From: an uncultured Phycisphaerales bacterium
GTDB lineage: Bacteria; Planctomycetota; Phycisphaerae; Sedimentisphaerales; Anaerobacaceae
DNA: 64,000 nucleotides
Reading direction: 5' to 3'
Assembly: GCA_963718665.1 (NCBI GenBank)
Contig: OY970359.1
Location: 2,112,001-2,176,000 of the forward strand
The position numbers and the translations under genes were made by a program. Position 1 is the stretch's first letter. Every line of letters starts with the position of its first letter. Shown here piece after piece: positions 44,217 to 48,919 of the stretch. The notes below the pieces were generated by a model that saw only the letters and a list, made by a program, of their open reading frames with translations, ran no database searches and was not told where the DNA came from.

Positions 44217-47057
44217 TTACTTTAATGTAACGGCGCAGCGTTCGCAGACATCGGGGTGTTGCGGGTTGCTGCCTACGCTTGACCAGTAGTTCCAGCAACG
44301 TTGGCATTTTTGATGTGTACTCTTTTGGGCAATTATCTGTCTTTCGCCATTGGTTTTTTCAAGCTTAATCTCACTAACAATGCAAAGGGCGGCGAAGGAT
44401 TTCAAGCCAAACTGCTCAATCGCGGCTGCATCTTCACTGCCGCAGCGGATAGTTACGCTGGATTCCTGATTGCTGCCGATAATCTTGTTTTGTCGCAATG
44501 GTTCAAGTGCTTTAAGGACCTCGTCTCTAAGAAACATAAGCTTTTGCCATTTCGGGTCTTCGACTTTGGGACTGGCTTTAGGCATCATCGCCAGATGAAT
44601 ACTATCAACATTTTGTGATTTGTGCTGGATTGCAGCCCAGGTTTCCTCAGCGGTGTGTACGAGAATCGGGGCGAACAATAGCGTGAGCGAATCGAGGATT
44701 TTGTAAAGCGCGGTCTGGCAGCTTCGGCGGGATGAGCTGTCTGCGGGGTCGCAATACAAGCGGTCCTTGAGCAGGTCCATATAGATACTGCTCATCTCGA
44801 TGCTGCAGAAATTATAGAGCAGCGAAAACGCGCGGTGATAGGCGAAATCATCGAATTCTTTGGTAACGCCGGCGATTAGCTTTTGGAGCTGCTGCATTGC
44901 CCATTTGTCGATTTCGAACATTTTGTCGTAAGCGACGGCGTTTTTAGCAGGGTCGAAATCGTAGATGTTGCCGAGGAGATAGCGCAGGGTGTTTCTGATT
45001 TTGCGGTAGGCATCCTGTGTTTTGCCGATGAGCTCATCGTTGCAGCGCATATCGTCTTGATAGTTGACGCTGGCGACCCAGAGGCGAAGGATGTCTGCGC
45101 CGTATTTGGTAACCTCGTCCTGCGCGTTGACGTAGTTGCCCAGCGACTTGGATTGCTTCATACCTTTTTCATCAACGGTGAAGCCGTGGGTGAGAACGGC
45201 CTTGAAGGGGGCTTTGCCCATAAAGCCCAGCGCGGGCAAAAGCGATAACTGGAACCAGCCGCGGTGCTGGTCGCTGCCTTCGAGATAGAGGTCAACGGGG
45301 ATGGGCCAGCCGGCTTTTGAGGCGACGGAGTACCAACTGCATCCCGATTCGAACCAGACGTCGAAGATGTTTTCTTCTTTTTTCAGTTCGTTAAATGAGA
45401 AGCCGGGAGGCAATTTGAAATCCGCGCCGAGGATTTGCTCAGGAGAATCGGTAAACCAGCTATCGGAACCTTTTGCAGCGATATGTTTTGAAACCGCCAA
45501 TACCGATTCTTTTGTCAAAAGTGTTTCGCCCTGAGGATTGACAAAGACCGGGATAGGCAGGCCCCAGCTTCGCTGTCTGCTGATGCACCAGTCGGGGCGA
45601 GATTCGAGCATACCTTCGATGCGTTTCTGACCCCAGTCGGGAATCCAGCGGACGTTTTTTGTGGATTCGAGGGAGAGGTTGCGCAGTGTTTTGCCCAGGC
45701 CGGGGATTTCCTTATCGACGCTGACGAACCATTGTTCGGTTGCGCGGAAGATGACGGGTGTTTTGCTTCGCCAGCAGTGGGGGTAGCTGTGTGTGATTTT
45801 CTGCTGTCTGACAAGCAAGCCGGTTTTAGTGAGGTGGTCGATGACTTCCTTATCGACCTTGAGGACGCTTTTGCCGCGGAGCCATTCGGGGACAGTGTTG
45901 TCGTAAGAGCCATCATCTTTCACCGGCGAATATATGGCCAGACCATACTTTTGCCCTGACATATAGTCCTCTGCGCCGTGGCCCGGGGCGGTGTGGACGA
46001 GGCCCGTGCCGTCTTCGGTTGTTACGTATTCAGCGAGTATAACCTTGTAGGCATCTTTATCAGTCGGGTTCTTTTCGATAAAGGGATGAGTATAGCGCAG
46101 GCCCTCGAGTTTGGAGCCGAGGACCTTATTTGGGTTGACTTTATATTGTCCTTCGTTTAATCCGGCAGCCGCGACGACAGCGGAGAGGCGGTCAGAAACT
46201 ACGATGGAGACGAAACGCCTGCCATTAAGCTGGTAGTCGAGAGTTACATATTCGAGACGCGGGTGCAGTGCGACAGCGAGATTTGCGGCTAACGTCCACG
46301 GTGTGGTCGTCCAAATCATAAAACAAACTTTGGCGTTCTGCGCCTGCTCTGCTGTTACCAGACCAAGTTCGGTTAATCGTGGGATGCTGTCTTTGGCAAC
46401 GGGAAAATTTACGAAGATGCTTGGTGAGTCGATATCTTTGTATTCCAGTTCCGCTTCTGCCAGTGCGGTTTCACAGCCGACGGACCAGTGAATAGGTTTC
46501 AATTGTTTTTTGACGAGACCTTTGCCTACGAGTTCAGCGAAGACCTCAAGGATACCTGCCTCGTAGGATGGCTTGAATGTGAGATACGGGTTTTCGAAGT
46601 CGCCGAATACGCCTAATTGCTGAAACTGCTGGCTCTGGAGCTTGACGTATTTGCTGGCGTATTTTTTGCAGAGCTGGCGAATTTCGGGTTTGCCCAGTTG
46701 GCGGACCTTTTCACCGAGTTCGGTAACGACCTTTGATTCGATGGGCAGGCCGTGGCAATCCCAGCCGGGGACGTAGGGGGCGTCGAAGCCGGACATTGTT
46801 TTGTAGCGGACGACGAAATCCTTGAGGACCTTGTTTATGACGTGGCCCATATGGATATCGCCGTTGGCATAAGGCGGCCCGTCGTGCAGGATGTATAACG
46901 GGGCGCTTTTTCGGGCGGCCCTGATTTTGCCGTAGATGTCGCTTTTTTGCCAGTCCTTGCGCATCTGCGGTTCTCGCTGGACGAGGTTTGCCTTCATCGC
47001 AAAACTCGTTTGCGGCAGGTTCAATGTTTGGCTGTAACTTTTCTTGTCGTCGGACAT
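44217..47057 (-). CDS. ileS: isoleucine--tRNA ligase (type 1)
   Basis: HDGPPYANGDIHMGH, GWDCHGLPIE, WCISRQR, KQSKS, C-terminal CQRCW..CERC. Confidence 0.98.
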   Translation of the reverse strand: MSDDKKSYSQTLNLPQTSFAMKANLVQREPQMRKDWQKSDIYGKIRAARKSAPLYILHDGPPYANGDIHMGHVINKVLKDFVVRYKTMSGFDAPYVPGWDCHGLPIESKVVTELGEKVRQLGKPEIRQLCKKYASKYVKLQSQQFQQLGVFGDFENPYLTFKPSYEAGILEVFAELVGKGLVKKQLKPIHWSVGCETALAEAELEYKDIDSPSIFVNFPVAKDSIPRLTELGLVTAEQAQNAKVCFMIWTTTPWTLAANLAVALHPRLEYVTLDYQLNGRRFVSIVVSDRLSAVVAAAGLNEGQYKVNPNKVLGSKLEGLRYTHPFIEKNPTDKDAYKVILAEYVTTEDGTGLVHTAPGHGAEDYMSGQKYGLAIYSPVKDDGSYDNTVPEWLRGKSVLKVDKEVIDHLTKTGLLVRQQKITHSYPHCWRSKTPVIFRATEQWFVSVDKEIPGLGKTLRNLSLESTKNVRWIPDWGQKRIEGMLESRPDWCISRQRSWGLPIPVFVNPQGETLLTKESVLAVSKHIAAKGSDSWFTDSPEQILGADFKLPPGFSFNELKKEENIFDVWFESGCSWYSVASKAGWPIPVDLYLEGSDQHRGWFQLSLLPALGFMGKAPFKAVLTHGFTVDEKGMKQSKSLGNYVNAQDEVTKYGADILRLWVASVNYQDDMRCNDELIGKTQDAYRKIRNTLRYLLGNIYDFDPAKNAVAYDKMFEIDKWAMQQLQKLIAGVTKEFDDFAYHRAFSLLYNFCSIEMSSIYMDLLKDRLYCDPADSSSRRSCQTALYKILDSLTLLFAPILVHTAEETWAAIQHKSQNVDSIHLAMMPKASPKVEDPKWQKLMFLRDEVLKALEPLRQNKIIGSNQESSVTIRCGSEDAAAIEQFGLKSFAALCIVSEIKLEKTNGERQIIAQKSTHQKCQRCWNYWSSVGSNPQHPDVCERCAVTLK

Positions 47058-47085: not shown

Positions 47086-47114
47086 ATGCTAAATCGAACG
47101 CTTGTTAATGTCAA
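47086..47114 (-). promoter_or_regulatory. proximal sigma-70 promoter of ileS
   Basis: Minus strand TTGACA-N17-TAGCAT. Confidence 0.5.
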
Positions 47115-47156
47115 TGTTAGTAACCCCCCAATAAATTGGGGGGCTAAATTTAAACG

Positions 47157-47194
47157 AAAAAGGCCTTTCAGGATTGCCGCCCTGAAAGGCCTTT
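47157..47194 (-). terminator. attenuator terminator upstream of ileS
   Basis: Minus strand AAAGGCCTTTCAGG-GCGGCAAT-CCTGAAAGGCCTTTTT. Confidence 0.85.
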
Positions 47195-47215
47195 ATAAAT
47201 CGATATTTTACGCTT

Positions 47216-47323
47216 TCAGGACAGCTTTGTTATGTCTCCTATAATGATAATCGCAATGACAGCGGGGCACATAATGTGCTTTGCCTGTGCGATTAACCGT
47301 AATGTAGATTGTTTTAACGCCAT
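47216..47323 (-). CDS. Ile-rich leader peptide of ileS, 35 aa (absent from ORF track)
   Basis: MALKQSTLRLIAQAKHIMCPAVIAIIIIGDITKLS; SD AAGGTG; stop region CCTGAAAG complementary to terminator 5' arm. Confidence 0.82.
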   Translation of the reverse strand: MALKQSTLRLIAQAKHIMCPAVIAIIIIGDITKLS

Positions 47324-47346
47324 AAATTCACCTTAACAACGTTACA

Positions 47347-47423
47347 AATCTACTATAGTAGTCGGTTATTGTCAATCGTAAGTTTAACGGCCATTGACAC
47401 AAGGCCGGTTCGCCTCTTATAGT
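47347..47423. promoter_or_regulatory. divergent sigma-70 promoters (ileS leader on minus, pmm on plus)
   Basis: Minus TTGACA-N17-TAGATT (47375-47347); plus TTGACA-N18-TATAGT (47394-47423). Confidence 0.6.
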
Positions 47424-47479
47424 ATTCCCTTTATTAACCGTATTTATTTTAAGAAACGAACAACGAAAGGGCTATTTTG

Positions 47480-48919
47480 ATGGATCCTACAATTTTCAAG
47501 GCGTATGACATCAGGGGTATTTACGGCGAGCAGTTTAACGAAGAAGACGCGTGGAAGATTGGTTTTGCGACGGCGCGTTTTTTACCTGCGCTTCTTCACG
47601 GTTTCGACAGGGGGCAGACCAATGCCAGGGCGATTTGCGTGGGGCGTGATATGCGGACTCACAGCGAGTCGCTTGCAAATGTGCTGATTGAGGGCATTAT
47701 TTCAGCGGGTATTGATGTTATTGATATCGGTATGGTCGATTCACCCTTTATGTATTTTGCAATTAATTATCTCAGTGCCTGCGGCGGAGTTCAGGTAACC
47801 GCCTCGCACAATCCAGCCAAATACAATGGCTTCAAGGTATCAGGCCCTGGCGCAAAACCCATCGGCGAAGATACCGGTCTAAAAGATATTCAGCATATCG
47901 CGATGTCCCTGCTGCATACCAAGGGCAAACCCACAGGCACTGTGCAAAAGGTTGATCTGACGGAGGAATATAGAAAGCACGTTTTGAAATTCCTGCTGCC
48001 CAAGCTGCGAAAGCTCAAGATAGCCATCGACGCTTCGAATGGTATGGCTGGTAAAATGGTGCCTGCCCTGTTCTCCGGGCTTGGTTTAAAAATTATCGAG
48101 TTGAATTTCAAACATGACGGCACCTTTAATCACGAACCAAACCCGTTGCTTGAGGAAAACCTTGAGGAGCTGAAGGCAGCGGTCGTTCAGGAAAAGTGTG
48201 ATTTCGGCGTTTGTTTCGACGGCGACGCAGACCGGCTGATAATGGTTGATGAGACAGGGCGAACGATTAGCTGCGACCTGATGACCGCGCTTATGGCGAG
48301 GTATTTCCTGAAAAAAGAGCCGAAGTCAACGATAGTTTACGATCTGCGTTCGAGCAGGGTGGTTGCAGAGGAAATCATCAAATACGGCGGGACGCCCCGG
48401 CGGGAGCGGGTAGGGCACGCGTTTATGAAAAAGGCACTGCGCGACTCGCACGCGATTTTCGGCGGCGAATTATCGGGGCATTTCTATTATCGCGATAATT
48501 TCTTCGCCGATTCAGGGATGATTACATTTGTTCATATGCTCAATATTATCAGTCAAAGCGATGCGCCGGTCAGCGAGCTGGCCAATCCCCTTCGCAGATA
48601 TTCCTCGAGCGGCGAGATAAACTTCCAGGTCGAGGACAAAAAGGCCAAAATGGACGAACTGGCGAAGAGATACCGTGACGGGCAGGTTGACTGGCTCGAC
48701 GGCGTTACCGTGGGATTTAAGGACTGGTGGTTTAACTGCAGGCCGAGTAATACCGAGCCGTTATTGCGGCTGACGGTCGAGGCGAAAACGCCTGAAATGC
48801 TCCAGGAAAAATTAAAAGAGATACAGTCAATACTTGGCTCGCCGGTTCGCCAAGAGAAACATAAGCCGCAGGAACAGCCTGCTAAAAAAGCGGGTAAAAA
48901 AAAGCCCGCAGATAAGTAG
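47480..48919 (+). CDS. phosphomannomutase/phosphoglucomutase
   Basis: IFKAYDIRG, VTASHNP, FDGDADR, GELSGH, SNTEP. Confidence 0.94.
   Translation: MDPTIFKAYDIRGIYGEQFNEEDAWKIGFATARFLPALLHGFDRGQTNARAICVGRDMRTHSESLANVLIEGIISAGIDVIDIGMVDSPFMYFAINYLSACGGVQVTASHNPAKYNGFKVSGPGAKPIGEDTGLKDIQHIAMSLLHTKGKPTGTVQKVDLTEEYRKHVLKFLLPKLRKLKIAIDASNGMAGKMVPALFSGLGLKIIELNFKHDGTFNHEPNPLLEENLEELKAAVVQEKCDFGVCFDGDADRLIMVDETGRTISCDLMTALMARYFLKKEPKSTIVYDLRSSRVVAEEIIKYGGTPRRERVGHAFMKKALRDSHAIFGGELSGHFYYRDNFFADSGMITFVHMLNIISQSDAPVSELANPLRRYSSSGEINFQVEDKKAKMDELAKRYRDGQVDWLDGVTVGFKDWWFNCRPSNTEPLLRLTVEAKTPEMLQEKLKEIQSILGSPVRQEKHKPQEQPAKKAGKKKPADK

Follow-up and report, generated by a model that had tools for sequence, protein, structure and literature searches.

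A probable two-state, ribosome-mediated transcription attenuator with an isoleucine-rich leader upstream of ileS in Sedimentisphaerales

The gene for isoleucyl-tRNA synthetase (IleRS), ileS, is preceded here by an Ile-rich leader ORF and by two RNA helices that exclude each other. We interpret this arrangement as a two-state attenuator of transcription in which a translating ribosome senses the supply of charged tRNA-Ile. On the basis of sequence comparison and folding models, we assign this reading a probability of about 0.86. The element is real and conserved, and it is very likely functional. Positions refer to the window, i.e. the whole stretch of 64,000 nucleotides that was analysed. Features are located on its minus strand unless stated otherwise.

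The leader transcript presumably starts at a sigma70-type promoter motif, TTGACA-17-TAGATT (47347..47375, 10 of 12 matches). It is followed by a Shine-Dalgarno-like AAGGTG (47329..47334) that lies 5 nt 5' of the leader ATG, is retained in close relatives and is weaker in short leaders of 20 codons. Both motifs are present where the first-pass annotation had placed them. The leader ORF, which is supported by the ORF list and by comparison with homologs, comprises 35 codons and a TGA stop (47216..47323). As described earlier, six Ile are found within nine codons near its end (47257-47231). The control codons proper, five Ile in six codons, occupy 47240..47257, with an extra Ile at 47233-47231. 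The run had also been said to include a rare ATA codon. This has to be withdrawn, since ATA accounts for 29% of the Ile codons across 1895 long ORFs of this genome and is therefore not rare there. In the 736,475 residues of its long ORFs, a stretch of four consecutive Ile was counted 12 times. The leader peptide was absent from the protein collection searched.

An intrinsic terminator had been expected about 20 nt after the leader. Its stem (47194-47159) begins 21 nt past the leader stop and has a folding energy of -23.9 kcal/mol (z -4.7). The 3' arm with the U-tract is found at 47152..47173 according to hairpin search, folding and covariation. The 5' arm and the loop (47176..47194; folding and covariation) form a shared strand that is also the 3' strand of the antiterminator. 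The 5' strand of the antiterminator (47211..47225) was assigned by folding, pairing and covariation, and holds the last leader codons including the TGA stop. An antiterminator that spans the leader stop, as claimed before, is present, but its extent had been given too short: the duplex of about 15 bp (47225-47211 with 47191-47176) extends into the terminator loop. This conformer folds at -23.1 kcal/mol (z -4.9); folding both structures was a check suggested in the first-pass annotation. Throughout the genome 428 terminator-like hairpins were detected, 12 of which passed a filter for a short ORF plus antiterminator; the ileS element has the strongest duplex among them (-24.7). This ranking and the count of four-Ile stretches indicate that the layout exceeds chance.

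The presumed target, ileS (44217..47057), encodes a protein of 946 aa that matches TIGR00392 with 914 bits, above the cut-off. Members of its protein cluster are annotated as isoleucine--tRNA ligase of Sedimentisphaerales. Between the terminator and the proximal promoter discussed below, a hairpin of G/C runs (47121-47146) is also found in L006 and in no other close relative; it is not a dispersed repeat. On the plus strand, a strong divergent promoter motif (47394-47423, 11 of 12 matches) stands back to back with the leader promoter and faces a phosphomannomutase-like gene at 47477.

Among 30 ileS loci of relatives, the element is located within 480 nt of ileS in 13. In two more it lies farther upstream, with a gene between element and ileS. 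Its upstream neighbours differ among these loci. Within the genus, blastn matches were obtained in 15 of 24 genomes, and the element is present in the families f1, f5 and f7. Since it is missing in many relatives, including the other nine genomes of the genus, it must be dispensable. We also scanned the genome collection with a pattern that is blind to Ile and contains only the hairpin and a CTGA motif; it occurs at no fewer than 119 loci. Among the matches listed, 26 of the 28 with ileS downstream have at least four Ile per ten codons in the TGA frame; the two exceptions are one leader cut by a contig end and one with two Ile. Eight further listed loci are Ile-rich with a flank too short to show ileS, and the other 83 listed have three Ile or fewer. 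Several matches bear the title 'Pirellulales'; because their IleRS is 68-84% identical to the present one, these titles are treated with caution.

For detailed comparison 44 distinct homologs were pooled, 17 from ileS loci and 27 from the pattern scan. As 26 of these 27 were chosen for their Ile content, Ile counts within the set are not an unbiased test. An in-frame ATG is found 14-60 codons before the TGA in all 44 (in 2 and 0 for the other frames), and every leader has its TGA stop within the antiterminator strand. In 42 of 44, the final Ile of the run precedes the stop by exactly eight codons, and equally many have ATT at codon -9. The third positions of ATn codons are A, T or C in 116 cases and G in seven. 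The leaders are 20 to 54 codons long; they lack a conserved N-terminal part, conservation being limited to the Ile run and the codons that take part in pairing. Four ileS leaders (L053, L187, L193, L251) possess only one or two Ile in the control window on an intact scaffold, and their sensitivity may be tuned or decaying.

In the terminator alignment, 98.9% of the cells are paired and 49 show two-sided changes, a level reached by none of 500 shuffles, which take no account of relatedness. Judged by the same relatedness-blind shuffles, antiterminator covariation is weak to modest in Ile-type copies alone (3 of 500 shuffles as high with 17 rows, 35 of 500 with 44 rows) and clear in the wider family, in which a 38-row alignment including non-Ile sisters has 21 two-sided cells (1 of 500 shuffles as high; 0 of 500 for the score). 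In 28 of the 44 homologs, one position of the antiterminator is left unpaired. The duplex energy ranges from -15.9 to -28.2 kcal/mol in all 44, with a median of -8.1 for shuffled sequences.

Full-length folding at equilibrium favors the terminator in 40 of 44 homologs even with a stalled ribosome, and does not tell the ribosome states apart. Consequently, the model needs kinetic control. Co-transcriptional folding was represented by truncated RNAs in which the last 6-12 nt of the terminator 3' arm are hidden. Under these conditions, the antiterminator forms in 44 of 44 homologs with a ribosome on the Ile run, in 0-1 with a ribosome at the stop, and in 38-39 without a ribosome. Upstream pairing of the antiterminator strand (strand 2) is weak, with a median of -9.3 kcal/mol and values of -12 or below in 11 of 44, and no strong 1:2 protector or pause helix was found in folding models of these homologs. 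Hence, the element is not of the full four-segment trp type, which we rejected given the weak upstream pairing and the antiterminator formed in the models without a ribosome. The layout had previously been called classical, of the trp/pheST type; leader, terminator and antiterminator agree with that description, the strong protector does not. Instead, the switch is predicted to be two-state, kinetically controlled and ON by default. The leader combines an ORF of cognate codons and an intrinsic terminator with an exclusive antiterminator that depends, in the model, on the position of the ribosome.

We therefore propose the following mechanism. With ample Ile-tRNA, the ribosome would get to the stop codon and, as the shared strand emerges, mask the antiterminator strand, so that the terminator forms. 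If Ile-tRNA is short, the ribosome would stall on the Ile run, the antiterminator would form first, and the polymerase would read into ileS. Without a ribosome the switch is predicted to be ON. That a stalled ribosome frees the antiterminator and permits read-through had been put forward in the first-pass annotation; the idea is consistent with every comparative test run on sequences and folding models. In one RNA run (0.05 share of words, contigs only) there was no cover at 47183-47810. The distance from stop codon to terminator stem is a criterion for coupling of transcription and translation. Among 70 gene-end terminators of this genome, only five begin 12 nt or less from the stop (median distance 31 nt), which by this criterion is compatible with coupled transcription and translation.

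In 43 of 44 homologs, a distal TTGAC is located 60-230 nt upstream of the leader's stop codon, the background being 20% per random 170 nt. A second promoter motif, TTGACA-17-TAGCAT (47086..47114), lies between the terminator and ileS and is presumably constitutive. All 30 loci, whether they have the attenuator or not, show TTGAC or TTGAT 30-130 nt upstream of the start of ileS (background 296 of 1091 genes). This conservation favors the earlier suggestion that a promoter below the terminator supplies basal expression, and the attenuator likely contributes a regulated share on top of it. With basal IleRS provided by the proximal promoter, the attenuator would act as a booster. Such an add-on fits its repeated loss.

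The hairpins are not confined to ileS, whose element is a specialised member of a larger scaffold family found throughout the order. A covariance model built from the hairpins alone, and blind to the Ile codons, has matches in 81 of 151 genomes of the order. Across the phylum, it matched in six of 151 genomes: two belong to the order, two contain plain terminators after long ORFs, and two are weak and scaffold-like. In the latter two (L330, L331), from other families of the phylum, a short frame stops at the expected place. We inspected 90 of the 98 order matches listed; seven were set aside as mere terminators with no plausible leader, and two lie at contig edges. Three or more Ile in codons -15 to -6 are found in 38 of 43 ileS-linked matches versus 2 of 38 unlinked ones, a contrast whose significance is inflated because kin are not independent. 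The other five ileS-linked leaders have one or two Ile there. ileS is the first gene in 32 of the 43 linked copies, including the present one, and in 11 cargo lies between terminator and ileS. Any such cargo would be co-induced with ileS, and 13 of these cargo proteins share 34-65% identity with proteins encoded behind unlinked copies.

Unlinked copies mostly possess leaders of 35-50 codons without an amino-acid run. They precede genes whose names, taken from NCBIfam matches below the curated cut-offs, denote predicted families only: GNAT acetyltransferases, SAM methyltransferases, EamA exporters and PLP aminotransferases, with glutamine synthetase or ArgJ behind the GNATs at some copies and an ABC-F ATPase once. 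Individual leaders of the scaffold differ in composition. A Thr-rich leader precedes asd (L127/L264), and a Met/Gly-rich leader precedes a methyltransferase (L056/L235). Phe-containing leaders are located before GNAT in L061, L137, L140 and L144 (followed by ArgJ in L061), and a Tyr-Tyr leader before GNAT in L073. Non-Ile scaffolds stand before GNAT and the ABC-F ATPase in L265, and before two small genes and glutamine synthetase in L237, L239 and L253. Within one genus, L252 has a scaffold with an Ile-poor leader and a GNAT before ileS; its sisters L233, L240, L244, L246 and L247 have scaffold and GNAT at another locus and ileS without attenuator. This set is a natural coupling and uncoupling experiment.

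A quickly built IleRS tree with 83 rows shows the direct and the cargo-bearing state as sisters in several clades, and genomes lacking the element ('none' in 1.2-3.8 kb upstream) nested among bearers. This pattern suggests that the element is old, was lost repeatedly and exchanged its cargo; the tree supports neither direction between general and Ile-specific forms. No second copy of the scaffold was found in the own genome. Beyond the order, 29 ileS loci with about 1.4 kb of upstream sequence yielded no Ile leader accompanied by a terminator. Six genomes from two families of the order (L317-L322) encode only a distant IleRS, about 30% identical and likely of the other IleRS type, with no Ile leader in about 2 kb upstream.

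Taken together, these observations permit a tentative joint reading, which we consider possible though somewhat doubtful. Sedimentisphaerales would share a single attenuator cassette that can be reprogrammed, its hairpin scaffold being fixed and its stop codon lying inside the antiterminator. GNAT, methyltransferase, exporter and ABC-F clusters would use it as a general switch responding to translation stress. Retuned leader codons would have made it sense Ile on ileS and Thr on asd, and on ileS it would be superimposed on the ancestral promoter. Cargo would come and go and, where present, be induced together with IleRS to protect against inhibitors of the synthetase or analogues of Ile.

The same family of scaffolds could suggest that the element is a general translation-stress attenuator of the whiB7 or antibiotic type for GNAT and methyltransferase cargo, the Ile run merely biasing it and ileS induction being incidental. 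The default-ON two-state logic of the folding model would suit such a role, as would the promoter that ileS has of its own, the 38 sister elements before GNAT, methyltransferase, EamA, aminotransferase and one ABC-F gene, mostly without Ile run, and the related cargo that intervenes in some linked copies. However, ileS directly follows the terminator in most linked copies, the present one among them, Ile runs follow ileS and not the cargo, and the Ile-to-stop spacing is fixed. We therefore regard this explanation as improbable.

It is still less probable that the hairpin is a constitutive terminator of a gene for a small hydrophobic peptide, with ileS transcribed from the proximal promoter only. 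The IIII stretch could be membrane-active, the terminator wins at equilibrium and the proximal promoter is universal in the 30 loci, but the leader varies in length between 20 and 54 codons and conserves nothing beyond the Ile run and the pairing codons. In addition, its complementarity to terminator arm and loop is conserved, and the element stays before ileS while the upstream neighbours change. Finally, the leader might be untranslated, with the AT-rich triplet repeat serving as a T-box-like binding site for a protein or tRNA that switches the RNA. The near-invariant ATT at codon -9 and the weak Shine-Dalgarno motifs of short leaders point this way; against it stand the ATG and open frame in every homolog, confined almost entirely to one reading frame, the synonymous pattern at third codon positions and the lack of an Rfam match, so that we give this explanation hardly any credence. 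The two-state attenuator sensing charged tRNA-Ile hence remains our preferred reading.

Other candidate leaders were noticed as well. Outside the window in the own genome, at G000:C1:57346-57399, a gene for 464 aa that resembles trpE is preceded by a terminator of -22.7 kcal/mol and a leader of 17 codons, three of them for Trp. The Trp-codon region repeats the terminator 5' arm, and the leader ATG is close behind a promoter motif, with no clear Shine-Dalgarno sequence. A short Leu-rich ORF lies about 210-140 nt before a leuA-like gene of the own genome (L336) and a possible Val-rich ORF before ilvB (L338), no terminator being detected at either. Upstream of cimA in the own genome there is no leader or terminator. 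Two ORFs of 12 codons (G000:C1:1956442-1956480 and 2431625-2431663) are nearly identical and contain two Trp codons each. Either one is followed by a strong hairpin of about -30 kcal/mol and by an unrelated gene, and the pair is possibly a repeated leader element.

Leader-peptide attenuators of synthetase genes include E. coli pheST and, by prediction, leuS and trpS of Streptomyces (PMC1262725). The ileS element resembles the classical ones in its cognate codons, U-tract terminator and alternative antiterminator, and in the match of amino acid and regulated gene. It differs in its target, ileS, and its host phylum, Planctomycetota, in a stop codon that is part of the antiterminator, and in its position atop a second conserved promoter. 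The sequence is unrelated: Rfam gave no match at gathering score in the window, and only one weak, chance-level match over seven loci. The Shewanella leuA attenuator has an anti-antiterminator (PMC2659441); a strong helix of this kind (1:2) is not seen here.

Closest in logic is whiB7, for which PMC10274678 describes termination upon efficient uORF translation and antitermination upon stalling. There, the composition of the uORF sets which starvation opens the terminator, and translation stress is joined with amino-acid supply. In the folding model the ileS element is likewise a two-state switch that is ON when the uORF is poorly translated. Unlike whiB7, whose target is a transcription factor, the scaffold is located directly before enzymes at several loci, and its ileS form has a tight Ile run. 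The likeness concerns logic only, and homology is not claimed. The ileS gene of Actinobacteria is T-box controlled, as are most synthetase genes in Firmicutes (PMC1262725). ileS T-boxes in these phyla share with our element the gene and the inferred signal, tRNA-Ile charging; they bind tRNA directly. A T-box identity was rejected, as no RF00230 match exists in the own genome (a control search was positive in 5 of 14 genomes).

Literature searches on ileS and on planctomycete attenuation showed no attenuator of the leader-peptide type for this gene. The main text of PMC4833913, as far as covered, counts leader genes in Planctomycetes and does not name ileS, and the available text of PMC13323073 does not give the PVC class. 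The principle is textbook knowledge; the ileS target and the planctomycete lineage are apparently undescribed, and to these are added the two-state design and the reused scaffold.

An Ile-rich leader and an RNA switch thus precede ileS across an order of anaerobic planctomycetes, and likely raise IleRS when charged tRNA-Ile is scarce. Beside the two T-box types, this would be a third mechanism that links the supply of IleRS with the charging of tRNA-Ile, and no attenuator of such kind was found described for Planctomycetota. That transcription and translation are separated in space was once suggested for Gemmata (PMC5394234). If the ribosome-coupled attenuator works, the two processes are coupled in this branch of the Planctomycetota. 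Reporters permit a direct test of this compact two-state design, in which the codons can be swapped. With one scaffold, varied leaders and targets and many losses, the family offers natural experiments on the gain of amino-acid specificity and, if the reading as a reprogrammable cassette is true, shows how amino-acid-specific attenuators arise from stress-responsive ones.
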